A stretch of 64,000 bases of DNA from a virus (lineage: Duplodnaviria > Caudoviricetes): positions 805 to 64,804 of the IMG/VR virus record IMGVR_UViG_3300025697_000023. One strand, 5' to 3'. Of this stretch, positions 6 to 23,100 are shown in pieces. Made by a program: the position numbers and the translations under genes. Positions within the stretch are counted from its first letter, which is position 1. Every line of letters begins with the position of its first letter. Under the pieces are notes generated by a model that was not told the origin of the DNA, did no database searches, and saw only the letters and a list, made by a program, of their open reading frames with translations.

Positions 6-224
6 TCAGTCCAGTGGGCCTGGGATATCAGCGACTTCAATCAGCTTGAAGGTGTCACTGTCTTTGCGTGAGACAATGAGCTTCAAGGCTTTGGAACGTC
101 CGATATGTTCCGAGCAGATGAATCCTACTTGTTCTCCCTTGTAGAAAACCTCGAGATCTTCAGGACCGTTTGTTCGTTTACAACCATCAACAATACAAGT
201 ATCCATAGAGCCTCCTATGAGCAT
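6..224 (-). CDS. small hypothetical protein with Cys/His motifs (CIVDGC...CSEH)
   Basis: ORF directly downstream of RNR. True start may be MDTC (~207), which follows a GGAGG SD. Confidence 0.5.
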   Translation of the reverse strand: MLIGGSMDTCIVDGCKRTNGPEDLEVFYKGEQVGFICSEHIGRSKALKLIVSRKDSDTFKLIEVADIPGPLD

Positions 225-4463: not shown

Positions 4464-5402
4464 ATGGTTGCAAAATTAGTAATAGAATTCGATAAAATAG
4501 TATTAACAGGGACTCCTGATTTATACTATCTGCATACTACTGTCGAAGCGGAATCTACTCCGGATAATATCAGGCCCTGCTTAGTTGTAGAGGAGCAGGG
4601 AGTCACTGAGCCTGAGAAGATTTTGCGTATCGCTGACTTTACAGAGATCCCTCTTATCAACTCTATCTCTGTCCTTAGTAAAGCTGTCAGTAATCCTGCG
4701 GCACTCATTCCTGCGGCAGGAGACCGGTATTTGGTGAAGGCTGCTGGAGCAGGAGCTTGGGCGGGTGAGGATAATAATTTTGCTACCTGGAGTGCTGCCG
4801 GGGTCTGGACGTTCATTCAAGCATATACGGGGATGGCAGCATGGGCGGTAGACGAGCAACTCCGGTATGAGTTCAGTGGAACTGCTTGGGTGGCTACGCC
4901 GGGTACCGGACTTCCGGAATTGCCTTTAGACGTAAATTGTTTTGAAGATACGGTGTTACCTGGAGGTACTGTTCAGGTTGATTGGACCCTTAGAATAAAA
5001 GGTCCCTTCCCTCCTATTTGGACACAAGTCATGGGGCTAATTCCCACCGATATATTATATTATAAAGTTACGGCTGTATTGAACCCCCCTACTAATCAAG
5101 TTTTGGTTGTGCCTCTGGGAGTAACTACTGCTTTTCCTCCTACACCTGAACGAGGAGTAACTGTTGATTATTGGGGTATTCCTCCGGCGGGACTTATGAA
5201 TAGTAGTGTTACACTGGTTGCTAACCGAGATTTTACGCTAGTACCTGGGACAGTCTATAGAATAGCTGAGCACCACGACACTTTTACGGATGAGACCATA
5301 GCAAACAACAAGGTGAATTCTTTGCGAGTACAGGCCCATACTCTCGTGCAAGAAACAAACGAGGATACCTTCACGGGTACCCTGCTGGAAACCTTTGAAT
5401 AA
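4464..5402 (+). CDS. putative virion protein with DUF2793-like insert
   Basis: PAAGDRYLV..GAWAG....A.W....W.F...G..AW..DE....F.G.AW resembles DUF2793 of tail-associated proteins. Confidence 0.55.
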   Translation: MVAKLVIEFDKIVLTGTPDLYYLHTTVEAESTPDNIRPCLVVEEQGVTEPEKILRIADFTEIPLINSISVLSKAVSNPAALIPAAGDRYLVKAAGAGAWAGEDNNFATWSAAGVWTFIQAYTGMAAWAVDEQLRYEFSGTAWVATPGTGLPELPLDVNCFEDTVLPGGTVQVDWTLRIKGPFPPIWTQVMGLIPTDILYYKVTAVLNPPTNQVLVVPLGVTTAFPPTPERGVTVDYWGIPPAGLMNSSVTLVANRDFTLVPGTVYRIAEHHDTFTDETIANNKVNSLRVQAHTLVQETNEDTFTGTLLETFE

Positions 5403-5773
5403 TGGCACTTCAACTAGATCTTAAACAAACAAATACTATTGAGCCTGGGCCGGTCTATAAGGTCCTGAATGAAATTACATATGCGGAGGATATTGCTGCT
5501 GAAGTTTTTGTGTTTACAACAGTTGATCAGGAGTTTAGTCATGTAGCCTCTGTTTGGGACCTGATGAATCTTCCTGTAGGACATGCAGCAGCGGTTATTG
5601 CGGGAACTGACCGGTATCGTAAAGATACCGCAGAAGTGGGTTACGCATCGGTAGACACTGCCATTGAATTCGCAGAGTATGTTCGTGTACGCATACAGGC
5701 ATTATTGAATGCCTATAAATCAGCAACCGAGGACTTTGAGGGAATAACCGACTACGTGTTTACCCCGAGTTAA
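5402..5773 (+). CDS. hypothetical (probably structural) protein
   Basis: TAATG-coupled ORF; shares a VFVF...F.xVA...DF.G pattern with its neighbours. Confidence 0.6.
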   Translation: MALQLDLKQTNTIEPGPVYKVLNEITYAEDIAAEVFVFTTVDQEFSHVASVWDLMNLPVGHAAAVIAGTDRYRKDTAEVGYASVDTAIEFAEYVRVRIQALLNAYKSATEDFEGITDYVFTPS

Positions 5774-5776
5774 ACT

Positions 5777-6991
5777 ATGGACAAAACCAGAATTGAACAA
5801 GACTCGATAGAAGTAACGTTAGCCGACGGGAAGACTGCCTTCCGAGTTACCACTACGGTTACTGACCCCGGAATTTTACCGGATACAGGTCTATTCGTTT
5901 TTACAATTGTTGATCCGTTAGAACCCAAGTCAGACACATTTATTCGTGTAGCTCAGCCACATGATATTAATTTTATGCTTCGTGATCGGGATAATGCTGT
6001 CGCAGCGGGAGATACGGAATTCTTATATCTTCAGGTCGCTATAAGCTATGAGTCTATTGAAGTAGCAGTACAAGCAAAAACCGCGATTAAATCTAGAATA
6101 GATGCAGCTATTAGTCGTTGGTATGTCTACCAGACTGAGTTTGTGGGCGTAGAAAATACTCTGCATCCTGGAGTAGACCCCGAGTATGAACAAGCCTTGA
6201 AGGCTGTATATGTTACTGCCCGAGATGCTCGAGTATTGGCAGAAACCGCGGTCGAAGACGCTGATGATGCTGTAGCTGCTGCTCAAGTTTTGTTGGAACA
6301 TGTGCAAGAAATTTCCGAAATTAGGAAGACTGAAACGGAGTTCTGTGCTGAAGTTAATACTACCTTGTGGCCTCAAGTTAAACTGGGGTGGACGGCCTTC
6401 AATGCGGGATCCGGAGCACTATATACGGCAAGCAAATCCTTTTGGACTTCTGCAAAAGCGTTTGATGATATTGCGGATCCTTTCTACAGTACTTCGAGTA
6501 CTTTTTGGACTAATTTAATTGTAGCGTATAATGCGTTTCCTACGGATCCTCCTGTTCCTGTTTATAACGGTCCCCCGGCGGCTCCTACAACAGATTGGTT
6601 AACTTTTTACAATGAGTTAAAGGGGTACGATGGGGTACCTGCAGCGTTTAACGCACTACTGACTACGTACGGTACCGCGGTTTCAACTTACGGCCCGCAT
6701 ACTTCTGCGGGTACTTCGTTAGCAGCGTTCCAAACGGTTTTAGATGCCTATACGTCAACGGCTACATTAATATCGTCAATGACTACAGCAATGGATACTT
6801 TCTATACTGCGGCAACCGTAGCATACAGTGCTGCGGTGGCCCAGGTAACACAAAAAGAAGCGGGAGTTACCACCGCTGTCAATGCAAAAAATGAGGCAGA
6901 AGCTGAGTTAGCTTCTGCCCAGGAAACGGAAGACGCGGCGTTGGCTGCTGTCGAAGAAATTTGTCCAGACTTCGAAACTACATCAGTTTAA
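5777..6991 (+). CDS. hypothetical protein with Ala/Thr-rich helical/coiled-coil C-terminus
   Basis: Long ORF; N-terminal domain resembles 5402..5773. Confidence 0.6.
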   Translation: MDKTRIEQDSIEVTLADGKTAFRVTTTVTDPGILPDTGLFVFTIVDPLEPKSDTFIRVAQPHDINFMLRDRDNAVAAGDTEFLYLQVAISYESIEVAVQAKTAIKSRIDAAISRWYVYQTEFVGVENTLHPGVDPEYEQALKAVYVTARDARVLAETAVEDADDAVAAAQVLLEHVQEISEIRKTETEFCAEVNTTLWPQVKLGWTAFNAGSGALYTASKSFWTSAKAFDDIADPFYSTSSTFWTNLIVAYNAFPTDPPVPVYNGPPAAPTTDWLTFYNELKGYDGVPAAFNALLTTYGTAVSTYGPHTSAGTSLAAFQTVLDAYTSTATLISSMTTAMDTFYTAATVAYSAAVAQVTQKEAGVTTAVNAKNEAEAELASAQETEDAALAAVEEICPDFETTSV

Positions 6992-8376
6992 TATCTTCTT
7001 AAAACATGTGGGTCTTTTTCTAAGTAAGTAAAATGTCCAAAATTACTATAAATATCCTGGATTGAATTAAGTGTCATATTAAACCCACACGCACCTCTGC
7101 CGTGGTAGCTGTAATTAATACGAAAACCCTGGAGATATGGTTCGATGTATAGAACAGGGTAAGAAGTAGAGTGCCAGGTACCAACGTAAGTAGGGCTGTA
7201 AACGTGACTTGTAGCTTCATAAAGAATAGCTAAACGTTCTGGAGTAAGAGGTGCAATATACTTTCCGTTCATGTCATTCCCATGCTTTAAAATAAATTCA
7301 TGAGCCTTTTTAAAGTCAGAAAAAAGGTTAATGTCGTTATGAGCACCGGGTTGGGTATTACGCCTAAGAGTAAAGTGTAGAGTATTATCACGCATGATTA
7401 AGGCGGTAGTAACTATACACCGGTTATAGCGTTTAGAGAGTGTTCCGGAGTTAGCTAGTAGGTAGCGTAGTTGAAATGCCGTAAAGGGATTGATTACTCC
7501 GTCATTAATTTTGGACACTATTTCTTTCTGGTCTTTGGGATAGGCTCCCCTACAGCTGCGTCGCGTACCATCTCCAAAAGTAGTACCACAAGTTTTTTGA
7601 ACTCCGCAATCAGTACAAACTTCTTTCTGAAAAGCTACATAACGTTTGCGTTCCTGTTGCGCTTCTGCGCGACAATCCGCAGCTTCTTGTATAGCAGTAA
7701 AGAAGTGTTCAGTGATACCTCTGACTCTTTGGTGTACTCCCGCTCCGCCAGTCATTGCTGGGCTGATATATACGAAATCATCAATCTTAGTGATCCCGTG
7801 TTTGAGTTCAAAGTCTTCAGCTAAGGAGTCAGGGGATATTCCGTTATTGATTACCGGGTTATTATACATATTAGACTTAGAATATGAGATCATTTGTTTC
7901 AGAATACAATTGTGTTCTGAGTCGGCCTGCTCGGGAGTATGGTTTGCTGTCGTGCACTCTTTACAAGACATGCTGTACTTTTGTGGCAGGTAACATTCGT
8001 CAAAAATTTGTTTAGTAGATACTGAGCCTATGTCTTTATCCTCTAACTTGAGACATATTTTTTCATGGTTTCCTGCGTCCATATTTTCCAAGACGTTTTG
8101 TATGTCCAAGTGAAAAATCCATTTAGGAATATCCTCAGATAGGTTTGAATATTGTTTTTTGGTATATGACGTAAACCTTACAAAGTAAGTATCTCCCATT
8201 ATTTTTTTTACAAGCGGGTGTTCGGCTAGTTTGTAAACTGTAGAGATATCTTTAAATTCTTTGTGTTGGGATGCATCCATACAGGCAAATATGATAGCGG
8301 GTGATTGATAGGTACTCCAGCGATTACTCGAAGTTGCGTAAGTAAACATAAGGGGGGTGTTGGCGTAATCAAGCAT
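6988..8376 (-). CDS. Cys-rich hypothetical protein downstream of RT
   Basis: 462 aa; start overlaps the RT stop; CKEC and CTDCGVQKTC...C motifs. Confidence 0.7.
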   Translation of the reverse strand: MLDYANTPLMFTYATSSNRWSTYQSPAIIFACMDASQHKEFKDISTVYKLAEHPLVKKIMGDTYFVRFTSYTKKQYSNLSEDIPKWIFHLDIQNVLENMDAGNHEKICLKLEDKDIGSVSTKQIFDECYLPQKYSMSCKECTTANHTPEQADSEHNCILKQMISYSKSNMYNNPVINNGISPDSLAEDFELKHGITKIDDFVYISPAMTGGAGVHQRVRGITEHFFTAIQEAADCRAEAQQERKRYVAFQKEVCTDCGVQKTCGTTFGDGTRRSCRGAYPKDQKEIVSKINDGVINPFTAFQLRYLLANSGTLSKRYNRCIVTTALIMRDNTLHFTLRRNTQPGAHNDINLFSDFKKAHEFILKHGNDMNGKYIAPLTPERLAILYEATSHVYSPTYVGTWHSTSYPVLYIEPYLQGFRINYSYHGRGACGFNMTLNSIQDIYSNFGHFTYLEKDPHVLRRY

Positions 8377-9529
8377 GTTTAACCTCTTCTTGAGCCTTCT
8401 TGCAGACCATCTCGTAGTCGCTAATGGCTACATCCAATTCTATTTTAAGACGGTCAGCTCGTTCCGGATTTAACTTTCCGATAACCTGATTAATATAGTT
8501 TACGTTTCCTCGAAGGTAATCAATGTACTGTTCTACTGTCGGGTATCCTGCCCGAGCATATTGGGTTTCAATCCCATGGGTTAATGAGTTGTGAACCATA
8601 GCTCGGAACAGAAGATATTTTTCACGCGGTATATTAGGTTTTTGATTGAAGACCATTCCTAGTAAAGTTTTACGATAGAAAGAATGTCCAACTCGGGTCT
8701 TCAGGGGGTTAATTCTATACTCCGCGGTTTGAATAATATCTGTGATACACCCACAAATTTCTTGAGATTCTTCCTTACTTATATTTACACCACAAGTGAA
8801 ACATAGATCATCAGAGTAGCGAGTATAGCGCCAGCACCAGACGTCTTTTAGGTTCATTTTTTTATCCAGGGTTTTTAAGTAACTGAGGATCTGATGATCT
8901 ATTCTGTCATCTGCAATAAGGTTACAGATAGCACCGGAGGTAGGGGCTCCTTGAGGAACTCCCGCGGATACTTGCGGTAGGTCATCTACAGTAAGAAGGC
9001 CTGCCAAGAGGCTCGCTGTATAGTGATTATAACCAGCATCTTTAAAATAGTTTCGAATCCAAGAGCGGTGGGTACTCCCAAAGAAATCCCGGAGGTCCAT
9101 TTGGATTACGGCACCTCTCCGGGGACACTCGTGTTTCTTGGGGGACACTCCTTTGGGAGTACCATCACAGGTTTTACAGGCAGGAATATGTTGTGCAACT
9201 GCATGCCGGGTAGACAGTCCTTTTCTATACGCAGTAACATGATCCCCCAATTGGCTCTGAAGAGGAATCAAGAACTTAGCGTGTACCCTGCGTAGGAACG
9301 ATTTCATAAAGGGTGAAGGAGCGTGAATAATCCGAAAACCCTTTCGTTTTTTAGGGATTCGGTGAACGGTATAGTGTTCGTCTTTCTGATTAAGTACCCA
9401 CCAGAGTGTTTTGGTTGCATACCCTAACCGGAAAGAAAGGCTACAATCATCCACGGCATAGGGAGTAACTTCGGGAATATTTGGTAATTCAATTCTAACT
9501 ACTGAGGTTTTGGCAAAGCCTATGGACAT
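8369..9529 (-). CDS. retron-type reverse transcriptase
   Basis: IPKK.KGFRIIHAP, AYRKG..T.HAVAQH (region X-like), MDLRDFFGS, VPQGAPTSGAICN, YTRYSDDLCF, INPLKT, LLGMVFN (region Y-like). Confidence 0.92.
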   Translation of the reverse strand: MSIGFAKTSVVRIELPNIPEVTPYAVDDCSLSFRLGYATKTLWWVLNQKDEHYTVHRIPKKRKGFRIIHAPSPFMKSFLRRVHAKFLIPLQSQLGDHVTAYRKGLSTRHAVAQHIPACKTCDGTPKGVSPKKHECPRRGAVIQMDLRDFFGSTHRSWIRNYFKDAGYNHYTASLLAGLLTVDDLPQVSAGVPQGAPTSGAICNLIADDRIDHQILSYLKTLDKKMNLKDVWCWRYTRYSDDLCFTCGVNISKEESQEICGCITDIIQTAEYRINPLKTRVGHSFYRKTLLGMVFNQKPNIPREKYLLFRAMVHNSLTHGIETQYARAGYPTVEQYIDYLRGNVNYINQVIGKLNPERADRLKIELDVAISDYEMVCKKAQEEVKHA

Positions 9530-10161
9530 CAGGTAACCTCCACTTCTTGCACTGATTTATCGTAAGCCTGTTTTAGATCCTTATCGAGAGGAAGCCGAGT
9601 CTTAGAATCATTACGACAGGTACTTGTTCCAGGTAAACATTGTCCAGCATAGTACTTCGGAAGATTCGCACAAATAGAACAGAGGAGAGGAATCTTGTCG
9701 TCAGGAGTTTGAATAGAAATAGGAGGTAACTTAATACCTGCGTTGGCGTTTACACCAACTACCTCAGACATGATGTAGCCTATTTCAGATATGTCAGGAA
9801 CTTTGTGACCCTTACGTGTCCGGGCTTTTACGTGGGTAGGAACAATCAGGAGCCAATCCTCAGGCCTTGAAATATTAAAACGTTTCTTATGGAAGAGAGT
9901 TGTGCCTTCAAATGCTAAATCATCGCGGCGTACTCGTACTGTCTTCTCACGCTCAACGTGTAAACAATTGAGCATTTTTGCGATTATTTCTGTGTAGTCC
10001 ATCACAAGATAATAGCGAAACAACTGCTGGATACGGGGCTCATCATTCCGGTGTGCGATGTACACATTATCATACGGGAAGTAATCGATATGTGTGTCGC
10101 GACTCCGGATACTGTGTTGAGCAATCTTTACGTGGTAAATATTCCCGGGGTAGAATTTCAT
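9529..10161 (-). CDS. hypothetical protein with C-terminal CxxC-x10-C-x6-C motif
   Basis: Stop overlaps the RT start (TGATG); CSICANLPKYYAGQCLPGTSTC. Confidence 0.7.
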   Translation of the reverse strand: MKFYPGNIYHVKIAQHSIRSRDTHIDYFPYDNVYIAHRNDEPRIQQLFRYYLVMDYTEIIAKMLNCLHVEREKTVRVRRDDLAFEGTTLFHKKRFNISRPEDWLLIVPTHVKARTRKGHKVPDISEIGYIMSEVVGVNANAGIKLPPISIQTPDDKIPLLCSICANLPKYYAGQCLPGTSTCRNDSKTRLPLDKDLKQAYDKSVQEVEVT

Positions 10162-11795: not shown

Positions 11796-12788
11796 ATGAT
11801 TAAAGATCAAACAAATGACCCGGGGTTTGGAACTTTGTGTGCTGTAACCAAGCGATTTCCTGCCTTGAAGGAAATGGCCAAGACGGCGGAATTAGATACC
11901 AATGAATTTACGGATCTTCCCAATACCGCGTTCGCGTGGGAAACTCGCCGAAAATTTCCGATTCATAACCGGGAACATACTGCGATTTCTTTAGGGTACC
12001 GGAAGATTGCGAGTGCTATCCCAGCTGAGGTAGATGAGAAGCTAAAGAAAGCTGCGGAAGTCTATGGGGTTGATACTACGGTGTTTGATACCCCTGAAAT
12101 AGTTAAGACAGCTTCTGAAGAGTTCTTCCTCTTAGGTGGACGCTTTCGAGTAACCTCTGCAGAGGAAGTACCCTATGCAGAAAAAGCGTTGCTTAGAAAA
12201 TATGCTAGTCTTTCCCCTCAAGACAGGGCTGAAGCATTTGTTAACTTGGGAAAAGTAGCACAACATTTTGAGGTTCCATTACAACCTTCTACCCAAAAAC
12301 TCGCAGGATTTACGATTACGAGTACGCGGGTAATGAAGGACTGGGTAGAAGCTCGGAAGGTAGCTGCTGAGAGCCTTAAGTCTTCTGTAGCAGGCGCTTA
12401 CGAAAAATTGGCGCGTTCGTATGACGGGGCTGATGCCTATATCACGGATAAATCCGTGCAGGTAAAACTGGCTTCATTGATTGATGAGCTAGACCAGCAG
12501 TCGGGGGTTCAGCAGTATTACGGAAAGTCCCTATTAGATCCAATTCAGACCGTATTCAATACCGACAAGGTAGCTACCGGACAAGTTATGATTGGTAGCC
12601 TGATGCTCGATAAAGATAAGGTAGCAGCTCTCCCCTTGTCCTTCTGGGAAAGTTTACTGGGAGACGATATCGCAAAGGAAATTTCAACAGATGGAGAACC
12701 TGATATCGATAAGCTGATGCCTATTCTTCCTACCCTTCCTAAGGATTTAACTATCGTAGCGCAGAAACAACTCGCGCATCTTGCCTGA
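11796..12788 (+). CDS. putative head-associated protein, rich in K-x-A motifs
   Basis: DLPNTAFAW..RKFPIHNREH resembles a DUF6582-like motif; GAGGAG SD; many KxA(S/A) sites. Confidence 0.6.
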   Translation: MIKDQTNDPGFGTLCAVTKRFPALKEMAKTAELDTNEFTDLPNTAFAWETRRKFPIHNREHTAISLGYRKIASAIPAEVDEKLKKAAEVYGVDTTVFDTPEIVKTASEEFFLLGGRFRVTSAEEVPYAEKALLRKYASLSPQDRAEAFVNLGKVAQHFEVPLQPSTQKLAGFTITSTRVMKDWVEARKVAAESLKSSVAGAYEKLARSYDGADAYITDKSVQVKLASLIDELDQQSGVQQYYGKSLLDPIQTVFNTDKVATGQVMIGSLMLDKDKVAALPLSFWESLLGDDIAKEISTDGEPDIDKLMPILPTLPKDLTIVAQKQLAHLA

Positions 12789-13555
12789 TGATGGAACTCG
12801 ACTCACTAATAGAACTTGCGCCCAGGCTATCGACTCGATTTCTTGAAAAAACCGCAGCCATGATTCCTTATGCCCGAAAGGTTCTTCAAGAACCTGATGC
12901 GTGTTGTGCGACTGTCCTTTATTTAGCTGTCAGAACTTTGTTTGGCGTTCAGGTTACAGCCTGGGAACCTGAAACTATTTGGTTAACTTTAGAACGGCAG
13001 GAAAATATTGAGTTGGACGAGCTAGCCCGGGACAAGATTCAGGCAGCTATTACGCTAGTTGTTAATCCTTCTTTCTACTGGGATAGCTATGTGTTCCAGA
13101 GGACCGCTCAGGCACTTAACGGGGAACCCTTCGATGCTTACGCGCTGCAAGAAATCCCCCCTCCAGTTCAATGTTGGGCTGTTTACGAAGCCGGTATTAT
13201 CCGGGGGTTAGACCTGGATGTTCCTGTTATCCCTGATTACGACGAAGACGTACAAAGCTATACCGCGGTATGTCTCCATAGAGACGGGATGGTACTTCCC
13301 CCAGATCAGCTCATGTATTCTAGAGCTGCTCTTAAGAACCTCTATCCTAAAAACACGCAAGAGTTTGCAGCCACTGTTATGAAGTCCTGGTCACAAGTAA
13401 AAAAAGAGGACCTCCAGAAACGTAAGTTTCCGGAAGATCCTCTGGGGGTCCAACTTTCATATTTGGCGGGCTGCAAACTCTACGTAGATGAGCGGGCAGA
13501 AGCACTAGCTAAGGACATTACCTTGGTTTCGGTACGGTCTTCCAGTCCTGCATAA
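12788..13555 (+). CDS. hypothetical protein
   Basis: TGATG-coupled 255-aa ORF; EKTAA near the N-terminus. Confidence 0.65.
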   Translation: MMELDSLIELAPRLSTRFLEKTAAMIPYARKVLQEPDACCATVLYLAVRTLFGVQVTAWEPETIWLTLERQENIELDELARDKIQAAITLVVNPSFYWDSYVFQRTAQALNGEPFDAYALQEIPPPVQCWAVYEAGIIRGLDLDVPVIPDYDEDVQSYTAVCLHRDGMVLPPDQLMYSRAALKNLYPKNTQEFAATVMKSWSQVKKEDLQKRKFPEDPLGVQLSYLAGCKLYVDERAEALAKDITLVSVRSSSPA

Positions 13556-14774
13556 GATCATTGTCGACATTCCGGGTATTTTTATCCAACTGTTTATGTA
13601 TTTCTCGCCAACCAGGAAAGTCGGCCATTTCATACATCAGTTCAGTCAGGTAGTCTCCCGCGTTATTGTCTTCGGCCATCTGGTTAAGACCCGTATGGAT
13701 CTGCATAAGAACTTCTGCAGGAAGGTCTCCCAGGAAGGTAACGAAGTTTTTGGCTACCTTGTCAACACTGGTTTTCTTCGCAAATAGAATTGTAAGAACA
13801 CCTTGACCAAGGTCCAGTAATTTGGTGCGGTCTTTCTTGATCAGTTTTTTCACTGCAGTTCGTGTCTTCCCCTTATATGCCCGTAATACTTCTTCCGGCT
13901 TTACTGTCAAAGTAGAGTCCGTGAGAAAATCTATAAGTTGTTTTGTTACAGTCATACCTACGGAAGCTGCGTAACGTGTTTCTGCGAAAGGACCAATGAT
14001 ACTTACATTATTCTTTTCCATTAAGTAAGTATCGAGAGAGATAGTCTGTATTGTTGCGGGACACATATACTGCTTGTTCACACGTTGTGCTGCCATGTCA
14101 TAGATGAGTTTGGGGAACGTTTCTATGAACGACAGGATACTCGGGTGGCAGGGCAGCGACTTACCTAGAGCATCCCTATCACTGAAGTGGAAGATATCGG
14201 ATTTGGCGTGAGGGTACCAGGATTGGAAAGACGGGATACAGTACAACCACTTGAGTCTACGGCGAAGTGCCGCGTTCGTTTCGATCTGTGTAACACTGTA
14301 TTTGTCCGTGGCGGGATTCATCATACCCACGACCATACAATCTTTCGGTAGTAGATAGTCGAACATTCTCCGGTCTTCGATCAGCGAAAAGAACATCGAG
14401 ATTGCGTGGGGTAGTCCCTGGTTTAGTTCGTCAAAAACCACCATGGCTTTTTCTCCGCCTTCGGGAAAGTTCTCTGGTAGCAGCGTTTTGAAAAATCCGA
14501 TTTTTGCTTCTTTTGTAGAAGGGATCCCCGCCCCCATCAACCCGTAGTGGGCCGTACGGATGTCACATACCCTGGCGCCCACCTCGTGCGCTACCTGATG
14601 AACTACTTGGCTCTTGCCCATTCCGGCTTCTCCGACAAGCATGAAAGCCCCCCGCCACTGCTTAGCATTCCAAGAAAGTAAGATCTGTTCTTTTGCGCCT
14701 GCCATAGTTACCTGCGGGATGTCATGTAGCTGAGCATACTTGAGTTCTTCTTCGTTCTTTTTTCCTTTTGTCAT
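13518..14774 (-). CDS. MoxR-like AAA+ ATPase (usual partner of DUF2201/VWA proteins)
   Basis: Walker A GEAGMGKS, Walker B VVFDELN, sensor MMNP, arginine finger AALRRR. Confidence 0.88.
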   Translation of the reverse strand: MTKGKKNEEELKYAQLHDIPQVTMAGAKEQILLSWNAKQWRGAFMLVGEAGMGKSQVVHQVAHEVGARVCDIRTAHYGLMGAGIPSTKEAKIGFFKTLLPENFPEGGEKAMVVFDELNQGLPHAISMFFSLIEDRRMFDYLLPKDCMVVGMMNPATDKYSVTQIETNAALRRRLKWLYCIPSFQSWYPHAKSDIFHFSDRDALGKSLPCHPSILSFIETFPKLIYDMAAQRVNKQYMCPATIQTISLDTYLMEKNNVSIIGPFAETRYAASVGMTVTKQLIDFLTDSTLTVKPEEVLRAYKGKTRTAVKKLIKKDRTKLLDLGQGVLTILFAKKTSVDKVAKNFVTFLGDLPAEVLMQIHTGLNQMAEDNNAGDYLTELMYEMADFPGWREIHKQLDKNTRNVDNDLMQDWKTVPKPR

Positions 14775-14803: not shown

Positions 14804-16423
14804 ATGTCTACAATACCTAAAAAACCATTATCAATCATTGCTGAAAGATGGTTGTTACTCGACGGTAAACCCTTTAGCTTACGTGATTGGCCTATGCACC
14901 GCGCTTTCTACGATGGGCGATACCCCCGTATGCTTATGAAAACTGCGCGACAAGTTGCTAAGAGTACCACCCTATCTAATTTTAGTATTATTGAATGTGC
15001 AGTTCTTCCTCATTTTCGTACAATGTTTGTTAGCCCTTCTAAAGAACAGACTGTGCGTTTTTCAAATGCTCGGGTCTCTAAAACTATGTCTTATTCTCCT
15101 ATTATTAAGGAGGGGTTTCTACACCCTGATTTATCGTATCGTATGGGACATAAGCAATTCCGTAACGGGGCTGAGATGTACTTTACGTACGCTTGTGACG
15201 ACCCCGACCGTTTGCGTGGAATTTCATCGGATAGAAATCTAATGGATGAGGTTCAGGACATGTTGTACGATCCTGTAATCATCGTAGGTAATGAGTGTAT
15301 GTCTGAATCCAATTATGGATACGAGACCTATGCTGGTACCCCAAAAACCATGGAAAATACGATTCAGTATCTGTGGGAAATGTCGACGCAGACTGAATGG
15401 GTAATGAAGTGTGAATCTTGTGGTTGCTCCCAGTATATCGATGACGAAAAATCTGTAGGAAAACTAGGTCCAATTTGTGTTAAGTGTGGCTCGTATCTCA
15501 ATCCTTTTAAGGGTCAGTGGATAGACCTTTCTCCCCCGGACCCCACTAAATATCCCGACCCTAAACAGAAGCTAAAAGGGTTTCATATCTCACAGCTTAT
15601 TATGCCGAAGAATGTGCCTGAGGCAATGAAGCACCGAGGAGGAGTTGACTACGAGAGAGCGGTTAAACGTTGGCATCGTATTCTACGGAAACATATAGAA
15701 AGTCCTCCCTCGTTATTCCGCAATGAAGTCCTGGGAGTTTCCGATGCTATTGGTACCCGTATGATTTCTCTGGAGGAACTCCAATCTCTTTGTGTGGGAG
15801 TTTCACTACAGGAAAAGCCTAAATCGGGACACTTTGTAGGAGTTAGAAGTGCTGTCGCGGGGGTTGACTGGTCTGGAGGAGGCGCGTCAGGACTCTCGAG
15901 AACAGTTCTTTGGATCTGGGGACACCGCGCAGACGACCAAAAACTCGTGTGTCTTTATTACAAGGTATACCCGGGAAAAAACCCTGTGCATGCCGTTGAT
16001 GAAGTTGCCGCTACATGTCAGGCGTATAACGTACGCATGGTAGTAGGGGACGCAGGAGAAGGTGCAGTAGCTAACGGACTTTTAAAGCGGGCCCTAGATG
16101 CTCACCGGGTACAACAAGTACAGTACGGAAGTCATGCGAGGGCTCTTAAGTGGAACGGGGAAGACCGGTACATAGGAGATAGAACAACGTTAATCGATAA
16201 TTATTTTATGGAACTTAAGCAAGGACACATGGAATTTGGGCCGGAAGAACAAATGAAAATGGCTATAGAAGATATCCTTAACGAGTATGAAGAAGTAACA
16301 CAGCACGGTAAAAAAGTATGGAGACACTCACCTCAAAAACCAGATGACTGCCTCCATGCTGGATTGTTTGGCTGGATTGCTTACAAGATCTCTATCGGAG
16401 ATCTTAAATTTTACCAGCATTAG
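14804..16423 (+). CDS. terL: terminase large subunit (lambda gpA-like)
   Basis: KTARQVAKST, LRGISSD..LMDEVQD, AGTPK, Zn motifs CESC/CVKC, nuclease GVDWSGG, VGDAGEG, PDDCLHA. Confidence 0.88.
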   Translation: MSTIPKKPLSIIAERWLLLDGKPFSLRDWPMHRAFYDGRYPRMLMKTARQVAKSTTLSNFSIIECAVLPHFRTMFVSPSKEQTVRFSNARVSKTMSYSPIIKEGFLHPDLSYRMGHKQFRNGAEMYFTYACDDPDRLRGISSDRNLMDEVQDMLYDPVIIVGNECMSESNYGYETYAGTPKTMENTIQYLWEMSTQTEWVMKCESCGCSQYIDDEKSVGKLGPICVKCGSYLNPFKGQWIDLSPPDPTKYPDPKQKLKGFHISQLIMPKNVPEAMKHRGGVDYERAVKRWHRILRKHIESPPSLFRNEVLGVSDAIGTRMISLEELQSLCVGVSLQEKPKSGHFVGVRSAVAGVDWSGGGASGLSRTVLWIWGHRADDQKLVCLYYKVYPGKNPVHAVDEVAATCQAYNVRMVVGDAGEGAVANGLLKRALDAHRVQQVQYGSHARALKWNGEDRYIGDRTTLIDNYFMELKQGHMEFGPEEQMKMAIEDILNEYEEVTQHGKKVWRHSPQKPDDCLHAGLFGWIAYKISIGDLKFYQH

Positions 16424-16441
16424 TATACCGCTTAGCGTATA

Positions 16442-16680
16442 GGACAAGAACCTCGCGGGACTGATGCACCCCAAGCGCTGTCAGCGCAGGGGATCATCAG
16501 ATTTCGGAGGGCTATGGCGCCCGGAGAAATTCTTGACCGGTAGCTGTATGCATAGTTAAGAGCATAAATCAGGATGTAACATCCTATTGCTTCTAGGGAC
16601 TAGAAACATTCCGGTATGTACCGCTATGTGTCGGTTTCTAAGAATGACATCTTAGAAACCAAACTACCGTGCTGTGTTGT
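16442..16680 (-). ncRNA. putative structured non-coding RNA of unknown family
   Basis: Largest intergenic gap in the window, with at least seven stems; several extend by G-U pairs only in the minus orientation; preceded by GGTATAAG. Confidence 0.6.
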
Positions 16681-16683
16681 AGA

Positions 16684-16701
16684 CTTATACCGCTAACTAG
16701 C
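16684..16701 (-). promoter_or_regulatory. candidate promoter GCTAGTTAgcGGTATAAG
   Basis: Near-identical to GCAAGCTAttGGTATAAG at 35307-35324; both lie directly upstream of small minus-strand units. Confidence 0.45.
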
Positions 16702-19700
16702 GGCTATTTCTTTTTCAAAATCGGCGCGTATAGCCTGTTCAAGGTACGCATCAGGATCTAATTTTTCAATGTTATTTTTGTTCATGTAGTCGTAGATATC
16801 AATTACTTCTCCGTAAGAGGGTCCTACTTCTACATCCCATTGAAACGGAACAGGTAGCCAGGGGTGGCGAGTTGCAACTCTAGTTTGTCCGTATTCCTTT
16901 ACGAAGTCCGGAATTTGAGAGACATACTTTTTAGGTATCTCAGCTACTATCGAATCATGTACCGTAATGAGCAGATGTCCTCCGAAGTCATGTCGGATAG
17001 GTTCAGCCATTTCACACAGTACCTCGAGTACTAGATCTGAGGATGTACTTTGAATCTTAAAGTTAATTGCCTGCCGGTTTGCTTTGCTGCGCCCATAGGG
17101 GGTTAATCCTAGCATTTCAAACCTACGACGACGTCCCAAGAAGGTCTCTACTACACCAATATTTCGTACCTGATCTTTTGTGATACGCACATACTCAGGT
17201 ATTGATGGAAACATTTTCTCGAGTGCATCAATAATCGTTTGTGCCTGTTCCAACGAGATCCCTACAATTTGCGCAATTTTGTATTTACTGGCGCCGTATA
17301 AAATTCCGAAGACCACGCGCTTAATTGTTTTCCGAAGTTTTTCTAACTGTCTCGCATACCAGGGATCCGTATCCTTGAAATTATTTCGGTTATTAAAGTC
17401 GTCGTAACTCCAACCGTGGTCTTCATCGATACCTATGAGGTTCATCACAGCTTTTCGTGATGCGTATTGTACCTCTGCCAGGATGGTCTCAGGTTTAAAG
17501 ATCATGCCCGCGAAGAATGAGTGGGGATCCATACCGTCATTCAGGGCTTTAATTAAGTTCTTATCCTTACTATAGGCCGCGTAGATTCTAACCTCTGCTG
17601 CCTTAGCGTCTGCGTTACAGATCACCTGACTCTCGGGGTCAGTAGGAATAAAACTCTTTTTGATGTTATGTTGCCCGATTTGATAGGGGACATTTTGCAT
17701 GTTTTCGTCTGATGATGAATTGTGGTTTACAAAACCTTGCGCAACGAAAGAATGATCATAAGCTACTTCGATATCCCAAACGCCTTTTATTCCGATACTT
17801 CGGATAGACTTGATTCGGCTAGTACCAAATTTATTTGAACGGTATTTATCGCGTATACGGCGCTGACGATTACAGGTAGTAACTTCAGAACCAATATCTA
17901 ATTCTTTAAGGCGGTGGATTACTAAAGGACCGTAAATTGATCCAGGTTCTGAAGGAGTGTAAAAACCATGGTTTTTTGTAACTTCAATTGAGGATCCGTT
18001 CTCAAGTGTAACACAATACATTTCTTCATCACCCTTGCAGAACAACTTAACGATATTACGTAATCTATTTTTGTGAGTCCTAATAGATACCGAAGGTATT
18101 AGATCCAAGGGTAGTTTTGAAATTACAAAAGATCCCTTGTCTGTGTCAAGAATAGTATTCTCGGAAACACAAAGACGAAAAGTAGCAGTGCCGTGTTGGT
18201 GGAAGTTCGTATGCATACGTCCGTCTTCTTCACTCAGGGCTTTGATATTGGCCACGAAGGTTGTCAGAGCCTTGTGTGTTGCTCGGTACCGCAGGATAGC
18301 ACGGGATAGGGGACAGTCATGCTGTGTAGCGAGTGAGCGTAAGAACTGAGCGTTAGTAGATGCTAAGCCTGTCTCCGTTCGAGGCGGTTCTATAACGCCG
18401 CTGTAGCATACTATTTTACCTGTTTCAGGATGTTTGAAACCTGTGCCATATAGGAGTTTACGTACGTCAGCAGCACTAGAAGGATTGAATTTAATGTTCT
18501 CTGGAACCATTGGCAGCATCTCAGCACGAGATTGCACGATAGATAGTTCCATCTTAACGGCTAATTCGTCTACGTAATCCCGGTCAACCTTTACACCGTA
18601 AAGCTCCATTTCCGCCAAGACACGAGTCGTAGGGATTACTCGTCCAAACATATTAGCTGAAGTAGGGTCTCGCATAGAACAGCCAGGCTGTGCTAGGTGC
18701 TTAAAGTAGGCGTTATGCGCCCACTGGCCTCTACGCTTTGCCAGCGCAGTGTTCTCTTGCTCAGCTCTTTCCCGCTGTAGACCTACTATCTGCCTTGTAA
18801 CATCGCCATCGATAGCTCCATACAGGTTAAGGTCGTCCAACGGTATTTTCAAAAAGCCCTCGGTAGCAGCATCTTTGGCTAACTTTTTGGCGGCTCCTTT
18901 AAGCTTTTTCTTTTTCTCGGCCGTTTGTTTTGCATCCGCGATCTGTGAATCGCCTTCGGTGGCTGTAAGAATAGCTTGGAGGGTATCTTCATACCCGGAG
19001 TAAGCCGGGAGCATAATATTTGTAAGATCTTTTAGGCCGTAAAAACCTTTCTTATCTTCAACTAAAAGATGTTCTCCAAGCATGGTATCCCAACCGATTC
19101 GTCTGATATCCCAACCCTTGCTTTTAAGAACTTTTAAATCAAATTTTGCATTCTGCAAAACCTTAGGCTTTGGACTAGAAAGTATCCGTTGTATCAGCGG
19201 AGCGACTTGTTCAAATGTCCAAGGAGTATCGGGGTGTTCAATTGGTATGGATGTGGAATAGCCTGTAGCCCAAGAAACTATCAGACTCAAGAGTTTCAAG
19301 TTTTTTCTGTGGGGATACTTAGTGTTCGTTTCAGTATCTAGAGAGATTATCCAGTTATCTGGATTCACATCATTTTCGGTATATGCGAGAATATGATCGA
19401 CTAATTTTTCTACCTCTTTAAGAGTCTTGGGAAAAACATAGTTCTTTGCAAGGACGTCAAGGGTAGGCGTCATCTGGATTGCTTTACCTTTGCCTACATC
19501 TACTACTCCGGAGAGGAACAAATCCATATGATTTTTAAACAAGTCAAAGTAACCTGTTTTGGCTGCAAGTTGTTGCTTTGACATGGACACATAGATATAT
19601 ACTTTACGCCCCTGGAGGGTAGTAGTTACAAAATGTTCTTGTGTTGCCGAGTATTTTCTAAATTTGATACCCAAGGATTTTAGAACACTATCGCCCATTG

Positions 19701-20148
19701 CAAAGATCATAATAGGACGGTCAGGACGTGAGTATGTTAATAGCTCCTGGTGAAAAAGTGGAGCACAACAATCTATATTATTTTTGAGAGGCTTTTTGCG
19801 CTCACAACGCACCGCATACGTAAACCTTCCTACGAACGGCTTAAACACCGTGTTTATATCTATTGTCCGTAGAAAGGCCGCACGTACTATTTTCTCAATG
19901 TCTTTAGTCCATCCTTGATGGTTAATTAGACTAGCAGACGGTCCCGATAAAAATGGAGAATTAGCTACGCAGAAAAAATCAACTTTATGAGGAGTCCCTC
20001 CTGCGCCGTCAGTATAGTGTGCTTTTTGGGAAAGCTTACAAGTCTTACACTTGGGGCCGCGCCATGCATTTTCACCGCAGAGTTGGCAGAAATCATTCGT
20101 CGCGGGTCCATCCGTATTCGCTGGCGTCTTTTGGTCGTTGTTTACCAT
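16693..20148 (-). CDS. polA: family A DNA polymerase with N-terminal UDG-like domain, 3'-5' exonuclease and mini-intein
   Basis: Exo I LDTET, Exo II QNAKFD, Exo III YGAIDGD; TATFRL/SSS..NMQN, motif A DAKAAEVR, motif B RKTIKRVVFGILYG, motif C VHDS. N-terminal Cys cluster and YAVRC...CC.P resemble family-4 UDG. Confidence 0.92.
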   Translation of the reverse strand: MVNNDQKTPANTDGPATNDFCQLCGENAWRGPKCKTCKLSQKAHYTDGAGGTPHKVDFFCVANSPFLSGPSASLINHQGWTKDIEKIVRAAFLRTIDINTVFKPFVGRFTYAVRCERKKPLKNNIDCCAPLFHQELLTYSRPDRPIMIFAMGDSVLKSLGIKFRKYSATQEHFVTTTLQGRKVYIYVSMSKQQLAAKTGYFDLFKNHMDLFLSGVVDVGKGKAIQMTPTLDVLAKNYVFPKTLKEVEKLVDHILAYTENDVNPDNWIISLDTETNTKYPHRKNLKLLSLIVSWATGYSTSIPIEHPDTPWTFEQVAPLIQRILSSPKPKVLQNAKFDLKVLKSKGWDIRRIGWDTMLGEHLLVEDKKGFYGLKDLTNIMLPAYSGYEDTLQAILTATEGDSQIADAKQTAEKKKKLKGAAKKLAKDAATEGFLKIPLDDLNLYGAIDGDVTRQIVGLQRERAEQENTALAKRRGQWAHNAYFKHLAQPGCSMRDPTSANMFGRVIPTTRVLAEMELYGVKVDRDYVDELAVKMELSIVQSRAEMLPMVPENIKFNPSSAADVRKLLYGTGFKHPETGKIVCYSGVIEPPRTETGLASTNAQFLRSLATQHDCPLSRAILRYRATHKALTTFVANIKALSEEDGRMHTNFHQHGTATFRLCVSENTILDTDKGSFVISKLPLDLIPSVSIRTHKNRLRNIVKLFCKGDEEMYCVTLENGSSIEVTKNHGFYTPSEPGSIYGPLVIHRLKELDIGSEVTTCNRQRRIRDKYRSNKFGTSRIKSIRSIGIKGVWDIEVAYDHSFVAQGFVNHNSSSDENMQNVPYQIGQHNIKKSFIPTDPESQVICNADAKAAEVRIYAAYSKDKNLIKALNDGMDPHSFFAGMIFKPETILAEVQYASRKAVMNLIGIDEDHGWSYDDFNNRNNFKDTDPWYARQLEKLRKTIKRVVFGILYGASKYKIAQIVGISLEQAQTIIDALEKMFPSIPEYVRITKDQVRNIGVVETFLGRRRRFEMLGLTPYGRSKANRQAINFKIQSTSSDLVLEVLCEMAEPIRHDFGGHLLITVHDSIVAEIPKKYVSQIPDFVKEYGQTRVATRHPWLPVPFQWDVEVGPSYGEVIDIYDYMNKNNIEKLDPDAYLEQAIRADFEKEIAAS
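17719..18171 (-). mobile_element. mini-intein (~151 aa, no endonuclease) in DNA polymerase
   Basis: CVSENT...VTKNH...VWDIEV..DHSFVAQGFVNHN, inserted between FRL and SSS. Confidence 0.9.
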
Positions 20149-23100
20149 CTACTTGGTCCTTTACAGCAGCAATTACTGGAGTTTTAATCGACTCATCGCT
20201 ACTTCTTTCTCTGGGGGAACTAATGTCATCGGTGACACTTATCGCTACAACATGCTTGGCTTCTATTCGGGGCCCAAAATAGGGAACAGTCTTACTAAGA
20301 ACGTTAGACCGCACAACTTCAGGATCACTTAGAGTCTGTGTGTATCGTCTCAAGGTCGCCTTTAATTGAACGGGGGCGTAATTACTGAATCGATCTGGGA
20401 GCATATGGTCAATCCCTGTTAGTAAGAAAACTAATATTTTCTTTTCTGGATCAAAGTAAACACCCTGCATACAGTCATTTATAAATGAAGCCTCGTTACC
20501 ACTGGAAAGAAGCGAGGCTAAAGAACGCTTAGCCTGGTCTCTATCATATTGAAAAACTCTACTATGGATGAGTGCATGGAACAGATCGTCAGACATAGAC
20601 ACGTCACTAAGCATGTTAACTTCGTGTTTATTCTGTTCTACAAACTCACGGAAAAAGGCTTCCCAATCGCGTCCAATAAGTTTCAAGAACGACAGGACAG
20701 GAAATAAGTGAGAAGCCCAACGTTCTTCAACTTTCTGAGGTAACGTTGAATTAATTCTTTTGTAGAAAGCTTCGGCCACGTGTTCGTAGTTAGCTATAAG
20801 CTCAGGAACATGTGGATACATACAAACAGCAATGTCTCGAGCGATTCCTCTAACCGCTGTTTTTCCAAAACGCTCTAGCAGAATATTATTGGGAGAAGGT
20901 CTATGCGCGACATGCTGCATTTCTACGTGAATTACACGGTTGATATCCTGCGCCTTTTGAGCTGTAACAATTGCTGAGAATATAACCGGGTGTCGAAGAG
21001 TTGCTTCGTAAAAGGATCCGTGCTGAGTACCTCGAGCCCTTACTACTTCCCCGTTAATCATCGGGCGATACAGCTCAAAAATATTCAGTACATGACTGCT
21101 CTTACGTGTTCCGTCTGCAGATTCAAATTCATCCAAAGCCATGAGACGTCGGTCGTTATTTGCAGCACCCGCGATGGACGCCTCCGTGTAACTACCGGCG
21201 TATTGTGAACAGTAAAAAAGCTGAAGATCTCGCATACTGGTATCCTGGCCCGTAAATGTAGATACGAGTTTAGACTTACCCGAAGAAGAGTCTCCAGAAA
21301 TAAACATCATTAGTGGATTTGGAAAAGCATCCATCACAGACATGATAAAAGGAAGCGCCGCGATAAAGGTTTTCATTGTTTTGTGGTTCTTAAACTGGAA
21401 ACCAATATCGTAATATTCTTCTACAAAATTAAATATATTTGCTACATCAATAGAGGCGCCTTGTTCTAGTGTATTTTCCGTAAGTCCTCCGGGAAACCAC
21501 GCAGGTCCTCGGTGGTTAGCCTCTAACCCTACGTCAAAAATAATGTCTCTGTCTGAGGGGCCTTTTAGTTTCCGGTATGTAGTCACATCATTTTCTCTAT
21601 CAATTGCGAATATAGACTGACCACAGACAAGGTACTCTACGTAAACTTCACTAGGTAACTTGGTACGATGATATCCCTGCCTAAGATGTTGACTAACATC
21701 ATAGTCAGGTGCGCCAGGGGTAAGTGCTGCAACGGCGTCTCGCAGATAGAATTTTAGGAGATTATCTAATAGAGGCATTACGTGTCCCGTAGGGCTAGGT
21801 TCTGGCAAAGTAAAGAACGCAGGAAAACCTACATGTTGCTCTACAAAGTCATAACAAGAACCCGAGATTGTAGCTAGCTCTGAGGATATAGAACGGTCAT
21901 CACCTATTCGAAATTGATGATACCGTCCTGTTTTTTTGTTATGGCATATTAGAAAAGTAGAATCCTTGCGGCGTTGAGTACCCACTACAGTCATGATGTC
22001 TTGTATTGCGTCAGTACAGCGAGCTATAAAACCTTGTTCGCTGTCTTCATTGGATACAATTTCACGTTTAACGATGTTGGTGTTAAGCGCGAATGCTTCT
22101 GCAATAGTATCTACATAAATATCACAGTCAGTTTTGTTGCGGATATACTTACCGTGCTCCGCGGCTTTTTCGTGGCGTTTACGTTTATCGTCTTGATCTA
22201 TATTTTCGAGATCTATAGTAGCACGTTCTACTGCCCACCGCCAAACAGGTACGAAATTCTTAGCAACTTTTTTATGAAGAGCATCAATAACTTTAGCTTC
22301 TCCATACTGGATTACTGCGTCATCTAAATCTTTAGCAGGTAGGAGTTCTTCCCATCCTACAAATACCCGGGCATGTACCTCCGGCATCTTCTCAATCCAG
22401 GATTGAACTACCGAATCGCCGCGGCTTATCGGGGCGTCTCCTACAAGAAATGCAGTATCAATTCCTGAGGCTCTCAGGATAGGTTCAATATGGGCGGACC
22501 CCCCTTTACCTCCTACAGAAAGAAGGGGAACTTCAATGTTTCCTGAACTTGCTACTCGAGCCATCAGAGACATCACATCCATCTCGCCTTCAGTTAGATA
22601 CGCGTGTGTGATTTTTCCCCTTACGTCGGTAAAGTCTTGATAACCACTCCACCCAAGACCGTATAGACCTAAAAGATTTTCAAATGCATCATCCGGGATT
22701 ACAATTTTTTTGGGAGAGTCATTAGAAGGAACTCGAAGTTTAAGTCTTCCGATGTCCCGAGGAGTAACATGTAGGGGCCAAACGATAGCTCCGCTGTATC
22801 GACTACTCTTCATAGTTTCGGCCAGGTATTCTGTAGCGGGTACTGTCAGATTAGTAGGTTCATTATCTTCTTTTCTTTTTAGTTTCCACTCATTGAGTTT
22901 CCGTAGATAATTATCTGAAAGGATCTCTTGGAGTTCTGCTAGTGGTGGAAGGATACCTACAGGGAGTGCGTGAAGAATATCTAACGGAACTTTTCTTTCG
23001 AGATATAACCAGTCAAGTGCTTGTTGTGCTGCCGGGTGTTTTCCCGGCGTTGCTACTGCGTCTAGCATATAGCTATGTGATGTCTGATATATTGCTTGTT

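Follow-up and report, generated by a model that had tools for sequence, protein, structure and literature searches.

The gap between the convergent genes for the large terminase (terL) and a family-A DNA polymerase (polA) in this phage DNA holds the smallest member of a lineage-specific element that occurs at the same junction in related phages of ~170-190 kb, and with a probability of about one-half we read it as a structured RNA on the polA strand, with a co-varying closing helix and surplus copies of a short motif serving as repeated sites. After GC correction it ranks first in folding stability among the 269-nt stretches of the window, by which we mean the whole 64,000-nt stretch of DNA analyzed, and it is undescribed in the libraries and open-access papers that we searched.

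The window covers most of its source virus record, a 64.8-kb fragment estimated to be ~36% complete. The ORF map and gene family assignments place a lambda gpA-type terL at 14804-16423 on the plus strand and a polA with an intein at 16693-20148 on the minus strand, and the 269-nt gap left between the two convergent genes (16424-16692) is, from the ORFs, folds, and structure rank, occupied in its entirety by the element on the minus strand. The polA side is a replication gene block, with polA, a primase-like gene, nucleases, and a helicase. Besides terL and polA, the products encoded in the window include the primase-like protein, nucleases, and helicases, together with a ribonucleotide reductase, a sigma factor, the split and intein-bearing subunits of a multisubunit RNA polymerase, a reverse transcriptase-like protein, and many unknowns. 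The initial annotation had this genome almost free of other spacers, which proved wrong, the map of ORFs of at least 100 aa leaving eight other gaps of 149-873 nt. Window DNA was found again in salt-lake metagenome runs. All 24 runs listed as containing it are recorded as DNA, and contigs from 4 DNA runs across 16200-16900 are identical to the window, so they offer no variants for covariation in that region.

On the minus strand the element folds at -98 kcal/mol compared with -69.5 ± 4.9 kcal/mol for shuffled sequences (z -5.86), and on the plus strand at -93.8 kcal/mol (z -4.70), with none of 200 shuffles as good on either strand. Among 709 sliding 269-nt windows of the 64 kb, its GC-corrected energy is the lowest on the plus strand, and on the minus strand a single window is lower, which overlaps the element itself. 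The initial annotation, which had proposed a highly structured intergenic element and comparison with shuffled controls, was right on this point; the stems that it listed are all readable in the sequence, and most of them form in the minus-strand minimum-energy fold. Its boundaries (16442-16680) fared less well, as the structure is real but fills the whole of 16424-16692. It had also noted that stems extend through G-U pairs only in the minus orientation, which holds for the window, where the four named stems have five G-U pairs in that sense, but the plus fold also has four. The minus fold of the element is 5.7 kcal/mol better than the plus fold.

Three exact copies of a 9-nt motif, AGCGGTAYA, lie on the minus strand, one at each edge of the gap and one in the middle, and a pattern search found no further exact copy in the 64-kb window. 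Copy 1 (AGCGGTATA, 16686..16694) shares its first two letters with the last two of the polA stop codon. Across that stop codon, a terminator scan and a three-phage alignment identified a small hairpin (16690..16703), which in the alignment shows paired changes (G-C / A-T / G-T and C-G / T-A) and on the plus strand is backed by a T-rich run, giving a terminator-like site; this run may only reflect the coding of the conserved polA C terminus. The 5' domain contains a 13-bp hairpin (16631..16662, minus strand; 11 perfect pairs plus two, one of them G-U) seen as an inverted repeat and in the fold, in whose place two relatives (L002 and L031) carry a hairpin of other sequence. Copy 2 (AGCGGTACA, 16617..16625) overlaps by one base the anti-motif ATACCG, which runs into a conserved GGA (16610..16617, minus strand) and was found by partner search as the 5' strand of the closing helix; a short local hairpin is formed between the two.

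Downstream of the anti-motif on the same strand are two hairpins. The first, hp1 (16588..16608), has 9 bp with one G-U pair and a 3-nt loop, as seen from the inverted repeat and the fold. The second, hp2 (16571..16585), came from a hairpin scan. Its purine-rich stem of 6 bp ends in a G-C closing pair beneath a TTA triloop, and the 64 kb contain no other hairpin of this kind. The 3' arm of the helix closing the 5' domain (16538..16545, minus strand, paired with 16662-16669 in sequence and fold) also looks like a degenerate motif copy ahead of a long hairpin, a reading that comes from our comparison with the array linkers of relatives. The 3' domain is that long imperfect hairpin (16445..16535, minus strand), recognized from the fold and its inverted repeats and corresponding to the single "array unit" of the window. 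Copy 3 of the motif (AGCGGTATA, 16424..16432) abuts the terL stop codon and contains, at 16425-16430, the 3' strand of the closing helix identified by partner search. A consensus scan found no promoter-like sites inside the window element.

A search of viral and metagenome contigs with the terminase gave at least 57 loci for comparison. Both gene ends could be placed in 48 of these, and terL and polA are convergent in every one, with a gap between them that ranges from -20 to 2138 nt and is 10 nt or less in twelve loci; after removal of duplicates, 23 distinct gaps are at least 100 nt long. The primary sequence of the gap is unconserved. In blastn and nhmmer comparisons with related loci only hp2 was shared, with L002 and L003, and distant-mode blastn of 16300-16800 against 50,697 GenBank phage records gave no match. 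Stable folding nevertheless recurs in the relatives' gaps, with z values of -6.9 (L003), -5.6 (L007), and -2.9 (L002).

What these gaps share is a core module with a fixed order of parts, namely the 6-nt anti-motif, GGA, a variable hp1, usually 1-3 unpaired bases, and hp2, whose consensus is a purine-rich stem of 6-7 bp topped by a G-C closing pair and a triloop of the UUA type. In an alignment of the polA strand from 11 phages, anchored on sequence alone, the leader reads GGTAWAAG, 5-6 nt, GTACTGG(A), and then the two hairpins. RNAalifold recovers hp2 from this alignment without being given a structure, with two-sided changes in six of its seven pairs; 96% of hp2 cells are paired, a figure that becomes 86% once hp1 is added, and four of five hp1 pairs show compensatory changes. 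The covariation score of the leader is 0.656, whereas shuffles give 0.318 ± 0.046 (none of 500 as high) and slid partners at most 0.30. The loop letters and the GGA are invariant across the aligned phages. Covariation across related phages, which had been suggested as a check, is seen here as compensatory changes both in the hairpins and in the long-range closing helix.

We built a covariance model, R1, from the leader of the 11 phages with the window left out and searched it against 31 sources. It gave 26 matches at E<0.1, of which 15 are outside the training set, and all of them lie on the polA strand and inside gaps. The window match spans the core module at 16568..16625 on the minus strand (15.3 bits, E ~0.05). 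In one complete genome, G004, three further hp2-type hairpins lie in two tRNA loci.

Beyond the core module, the elements of the relatives grow by repetition of a unit. Their arrays consist of tandem repeats of the motif followed by a long imperfect hairpin, with 58-139 nt per unit, a conserved linker of 12-13 nt, hairpin sequences that are unrelated to one another, and no ORFs between units. The window has one such unit, bounded by motif copy 3, other phages have from zero to about ten (the latter in L015), and in this way element length varies from 165 to 1154 nt. The array motif differs by lineage, being AGCAGTAC(C) in most phages, AGCAGTGCC in L015 and L051, and AGCGGCAT in L002 and L031, and it is homogeneous within one phage and different between phages. 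In the 107-kb record of L015, the motif is clustered solely at the terL/polA junction. A possible second array in G001 was discarded, since the two matches to the motif, with 85 nt between them, fall within coding sequence and are thus put down to chance.

That the element folds as one nucleic acid whose domain is closed by a helix, rather than as a set of independent hairpins, is in our view best supported by the co-variation of the motif with the anti-motif, defined as the six letters ending in the first G of the conserved GGA. In the window the anti-motif has two partners, one 180 nt downstream (16425-16430) and one 82 nt upstream (16687-16692, in motif copy 1), where 0.007 are expected from shuffles. 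We extended the partner test to 21 modules found by R1 in 14 elements, counting perfect matches to "AG + 6-nt complement" within the module's own element. At least one such partner exists for 17 of the 21 modules, and in total 32 perfect partners were observed against 0.27 expected from shuffles. The anti-motif occurs in eight sequence versions, each with its own complement, and the two co-vary between phages and also between modules within one phage. The partners lie downstream on the polA strand in 30 of the 32 cases, usually at a distance of ~100-900 nt. Partners with one wobble, read in the polA sense, comprise 15 G-U and 3 A-C (8 of the 15 from L015). The consensus fold of the window and its two closest relatives likewise pairs the leader motif with the anti-motif.

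The initial annotation had proposed a noncoding RNA of the minus strand, and the evidence on this point divides between the parts of the element. For the core module, the R1 matches (26 of 26 on the polA strand), the downstream position of the partners, and the excess of G-U over A-C wobbles all agree with that polarity, as does hp2 itself, with 14 G-U and 3 A-C pairs when the model-fitted alignment is read in the polA sense. The advantage of 5.7 kcal/mol for the minus fold of the window points the same way, as do the canonical terminators that L007 and L019 carry on the polA strand. The core module and closing helix are thus best read on the polA strand, insofar as base-pairing patterns can tell. 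The array hairpins give the opposite signal. For 28 array units from 8 relatives, the summed folding energy is -1307 kcal/mol in the terL sense versus -1201 kcal/mol in the polA sense, with the terL sense better in 20 of the 28; G-U pairs number 70 in the terL sense versus 41 in the polA sense in these units and 210 versus 133 over whole elements. The look-alike hairpins of G004 have their UUA loop on the strand opposite the tRNAs and adjacent genes, so these too count against the proposed polarity, and the terminator-like hairpin with its T-run on the plus strand of the window is a further point for the terL sense. Stable RNA tetraloops are rare (GNRA in 4 of 43 in the plus sense, UNCG in 1 of 56 in the minus sense) and too few to indicate a strand. 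The strand signals are in conflict, the array hairpins may belong to either polarity, and convergent transcription of both strands is possible.

A second possibility is that the element is a transcript-end module of the convergent terL and polA units, in which the hairpins stop or insulate polymerases and protect 3' ends, and the arrays are mainly a 3' extension of terL. The G-U bias of the arrays toward the terL sense fits this explanation, as do the position of the element between convergent genes in all 48 loci with both genes placed, hairpin sequences that vary freely with the structure kept, and its dispensability. There are also terminator-like features at the far ends, namely the hairpin with a T-run on the plus strand of the window and, in L007 and L019, canonical terminators on the polA strand. 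However, these two are the only canonical polA-strand terminators in the 19 elements scanned, the terL strand has two that are incidental, and the one candidate in the window, at the polA edge on the plus strand, does not account for the other hairpins. Terminators or stabilizers need neither conserved loop letters, nor a GGA, nor a co-varying long-range helix; up to ten consecutive units go far beyond the needs of termination, and in twelve loci no more than 10 nt of gap suffices. We consider a role confined to transcript ends possible but rather unlikely.

Phylogeny and genome position bear on whether the element acts instead as DNA. In a quick tree of terL, the element-bearing phages form one group (19 rows, support 81) in which the element-less L045 and L048 are nested, and there is a separate element-less clade (support 100), a pattern that suggests one gain followed by losses. 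Five partial element-bearing genomes have significant R1 matches at the junction only, and there is no R1 match anywhere in near-complete G005 (97%), G007 (95%), or G008 (100%, with terminal repeats). The element is hence, as far as genome comparison can tell, accessory rather than essential, and not an origin or packaging site. No extremum of cumulative GC skew falls at the junction in 6 records, and in G008, with its terminal repeats, the terL/polA locus is at ~77 kb of 189 kb, in mid-genome. A replication origin and a pac or cos site were accordingly rejected as candidates, the alternative of a single-stranded DNA origin or packaging structure raised in the initial annotation is weakened, and a function as origin, terminus, or packaging site is unlikely. 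Since close relatives do without the element, it probably serves the phage against certain hosts or competitors and has no part in core replication.

Other DNA-level functions fare somewhat differently, as hairpins extruded in single-stranded or supercoiled DNA, with a repeated motif, could act as priming or loading signals, as hairpin-type promoters, or as recombination cassettes. The hairpins are predominantly near-perfect palindromes with minimal loops of 3-4 nt, mostly triloops, which also fits DNA hairpins, as does the scarcity of RNA tetraloops. A motif that is uniform within a phage and differs between phages is what a protein-binding site would show, and inverted copies of one such DNA site would also give perfect motif/anti-motif matches. 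The conflicting strand signals look as if neither RNA strand alone were selected. The element adjoins the replication gene block, and its junction is hyperplastic, an outgroup carrying there an RNase T-type exonuclease gene and small ORFs and L022 differing from L020 by a 315-nt insert; in these phages the terL/polA junction is a place where DNA is gained and lost with particular frequency.

A precedent for such cassettes exists in T4-type phages, where, according to the accessible parts of the sources, PeSLs combine a stem-loop with an early promoter and mediate gene shuffling (PMC2839356; PMC4122927). As described there, PeSLs are scattered, flank ORFans, and carry full sigma-70 promoters (PMC2839356; PMC4122927). 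Insofar as these descriptions reach, the element resembles them in its repeated stem-loop with a short conserved sequence and in its place in a hyperplastic region of a large phage with gain and loss of DNA, and differs in having tandem units with no genes between them, a 12-13-nt linker, and a motif at one locus. A PeSL cassette was rejected on the confinement of the motif to the gap, the lack of a promoter-like site inside it, and the lack of ORFs between units. A general promoter can be dismissed because the motif occurs nowhere else in the window and the promoter-like GGTAWAAG box, with 101 matches against 114 expected, is not enriched; linkers of 12-13 nt are also too short for a two-box promoter. 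Complementary partners 100-890 nt apart are implausible for cruciforms, the junction lacks a GC-skew extremum, and the near-complete relatives without a copy argue against an essential origin. A function of the element as DNA thus seems to us doubtful, though with some chance of being right.

The element matches no known RNA family. Rfam 15 gave no match at gathering score in the 64-kb window or in 19 related loci (129,713 bases), and at E ≤10 the interval 16300-16800 gave four chance-level matches (three miRNA and one snoRNA) far below the cut-offs. ARAGORN found no tRNA or tmRNA in the window, nor in the elements of 21 related loci. These results agree with the initial annotation, which had recognized no tRNA, tmRNA, 6S RNA, or riboswitch. 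A search of the open-access literature, covering main texts without supplementary files, found no description of such an element.

Several known systems are similar in part. CsrB/RsmZ sponge RNAs display a short motif many times in a hairpin-rich RNA; the element also has a short motif repeated many-fold, in variable copy number, in hairpin-rich sequence, but the motif lies in linkers and not in hairpin loops, and there is no Rfam match. REP/BIME elements are imperfect palindromes that share sequence and are dispersed genome-wide, and the element resembles them in that its palindromes are imperfect, have a short conserved sequence beside them, and cluster where genes converge, whereas its hairpins are each unique and confined to one locus (three in G004). 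The ToxI RNAs of type III toxin-antitoxin systems are made of near-identical tandem repeats of ~34-36 nt followed by the toxin gene, and a ToxI-like RNA was rejected, the units here differing in sequence and length with no toxin gene adjacent. A retron was also rejected: the RVT_1 gene (8369-9529) is 7 kb away and is present in five of five genomes tested, element-less ones included, so that the reverse transcriptase-like gene is, by this gene comparison, a core gene that occurs whether or not the element does. No repeat resembling a template/variable pair was found in the window, which disposes of a diversity-generating retroelement (DGR) template. A search for antisense targets in the window gave a single 14-nt inverted match that is unconserved in 18 relatives, and this role was likewise set aside.

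GOLLD and ROOL RNAs are linked with tRNA genes, and in one relative (G004) the look-alike hairpins adjoin tRNA genes. In the accessible part of a recent account they appear as large, ornate, phage-associated RNAs (PMC12286853), and to that extent the element is like them as a long, multi-hairpin, noncoding phage element; it differs in that neither the window nor 19 relatives have an Rfam match to either family and in that its length varies by units. TIGR arrays, in the part of their description available, have 36-nt units with edge and loop repeats of 8-12 nt and 9-nt spacers beside a Nop-domain Tas gene, and in one form the units are separated by palindromic stem-loops of variable sequence; a Salicola phage carries one such system (PMC12045711). 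The likeness, within the scope of that description, is one of phage-borne arrays in which short conserved repeats alternate with variable parts, and the Salicola phage system has a parallel in the salt-lake metagenomes in which the window DNA recurs. A TIGR-Tas array was nevertheless rejected on unit size, 58-139 nt and not ~36 nt; the flanking genes are terL and polA. No Pfam Nop domain was found in 51 window ORFs, a search that divergent Tas proteins may escape.

We compared 50 window ORFs with five whole records, and few are confined to element-bearing genomes. Among these is a 210-aa cysteine-rich, zinc finger-like protein (9529-10161, minus strand), identified by this genome comparison, which has four invariant cysteines near its C terminus and is not known outside this group of phages. 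It is present in nine of nine element-bearing records (the window, G001, G003, G004, and G009-G013) and absent from six of six records that lack the module (G005, G006, G007, and G014-G016), and G008 has a weak 45-bit match; the co-occurrence is confounded by phylogeny, as most of the element-less records belong to a single clade and a number of them have a completeness of just 23-56%. No Pfam or PHROG family includes the protein. A structural model from 7 sequences (pLDDT 62, pTM 0.66) gave no Foldseek match at E ≤0.001, and the best VIA-align Z score was 2.9. From its distribution, we regard this protein as a candidate partner of the element.

A more elaborate possibility is that the element belongs to an undescribed repeat/anti-repeat RNA system, in which the anti-motif leader with its two hairpins would pair with up to ten motif copies and the 210-aa protein would recognize the module, leading to processing or assembly of the array. 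The leader could pair in cis or between molecules with each motif copy, and the array could then be cut into individual hairpin RNAs, or copies of the RNA knit into a higher-order assembly. The parallel is with type II CRISPR, where the anti-repeat of the tracrRNA pairs with the repeats of the array. Here too a single anti-motif, followed by hairpins, complements a short array repeat, and both co-vary between lineages; however, no more than 6-7 nt are complementary, what stands in place of spacers is a hairpin of 58-139 nt that pairs with itself, and there is no cas gene. CRISPR arrays have direct repeats of ~23-40 nt and unique spacers of similar size, and such an array was rejected, given a repeat of 8-13 nt and self-complementary intervening parts. 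We rate a system of this kind as unlikely. Very unlikely is that the element is functionless, a decaying accumulation of palindromes and tandem copies in a gap that tolerates them, for although copy number is widely variable, unit sequences are unrelated, the element is dispensable, and nested lineages have lost it, hp1, hp2, and the closing helix are maintained by compensatory changes across phages whose terL proteins share only 58-71% identity with that of the window, the loop letters and GGA are invariant, and z values of -5 to -7 in several relatives are not expected of neutral sequence.

Our best guess is a protein-bound structured RNA. From the architecture and its covariation we infer transcription, pairing in vivo, and a partner, as follows. 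The window would carry the minimal copy of a lineage-specific, accessory structured RNA of one clade of large phages that have their own RNA polymerase, located at their variable, convergent terL/polA junction. The element would be read on the minus strand, where it would make up the 3' portion of polA mRNA or else be transcribed separately. The anti-motif would pair with a motif copy and so close a multi-hairpin domain, leaving the surplus motif copies single-stranded between stable hairpins. These free copies may then act as repeated binding or pairing sites for a phage factor or for other copies of the RNA, with the cysteine-rich protein encoded at 9529-10161 on the minus strand as the candidate factor.

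If it is a functional RNA, the element would represent a new family of structured noncoding elements, found in large phages that are uncultured. It has an unusual design, in which a single 5' closing strand is matched by many 3' strands that can replace one another and that each precede a hairpin of free sequence. If this reading is true, it could reveal a new use of RNA by phages, for example, as a decoy or scaffold or as an array that is processed.

We examined the gap between terL and polA, which in the window holds the folded non-coding element, in related phages. At the outgroup loci L025 and L052 the junction region (about 4600-6750) encodes an exonuclease of the RNase T type as well as small ORFs rich in cysteine, and it also has three non-coding repeats, each about 270 nt long and with small hairpins of its own; a search of this junction with R1, the covariance model of the element's core module built from 11 related phages, gave no match. 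For the loci L022 and L020, whose terminases are nearly identical (tree distance 0.002), the gap is 1 nt in one phage and holds a 315-nt insert in the other; this insert is weakly structured and contains an ORF without family, and the difference has the appearance of a recent indel at the junction.

Hairpins of the hp2 type, that is, like the purine-rich hairpin with a UUA triloop in the core module, are also found outside the junction. Two long non-coding stretches in tRNA gene clusters (13090-13822 and 22139-22515 in related genome G004, the genome of L003; locus L065, 1201-1577) fold strongly as well (z -5.8 and -4.6). Between them they hold three hairpins of this type, which share the triloop of hp2 and lie antisense to the tRNAs.

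The window itself contains a perfect 14-nt inverted repeat, with one arm inside the terL coding region (16297-16310) and the other in the polA-proximal part of the element (16665-16678). This length was reached in none of 200 shuffles; because none of 18 relatives shows a comparable match, the repeat is either a lineage-specific feature or a coincidence. The window's second most structured stretch after GC correction (13231-13500, minus strand, -97 kcal/mol) is where ORFs 12788-13555 (plus) and 13518-14774 (minus) meet and overlap. Nine tandem 18-nt repeats (57412-57627) within ORF 57160-57801 encode a proline/glutamate/valine-rich repeat. Three core genes (215-3850, 16693-20148 and 35358-40775) carry intein or homing-endonuclease domains: the ribonucleotide reductase and the RNA polymerase beta-like protein have LAGLIDADG domains, and the DNA polymerase has an intein splicing domain.

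A 210-aa protein (9529-10161, minus strand) with four invariant C-terminal cysteines, for which Pfam and PHROG searches returned no family and fold comparison no match, occurs in 9/9 element-bearing records but in 0/6 without the module, a co-occurrence that phylogeny confounds. At 8369-9529 on the same strand lies a reverse-transcriptase-like gene (RVT_1, E 3.8e-11); no DGR-type repeat pair was found within the 64-kb window. The gene is kept in all five related genomes tested, element-less ones among them, and is therefore a core gene of the phage group.
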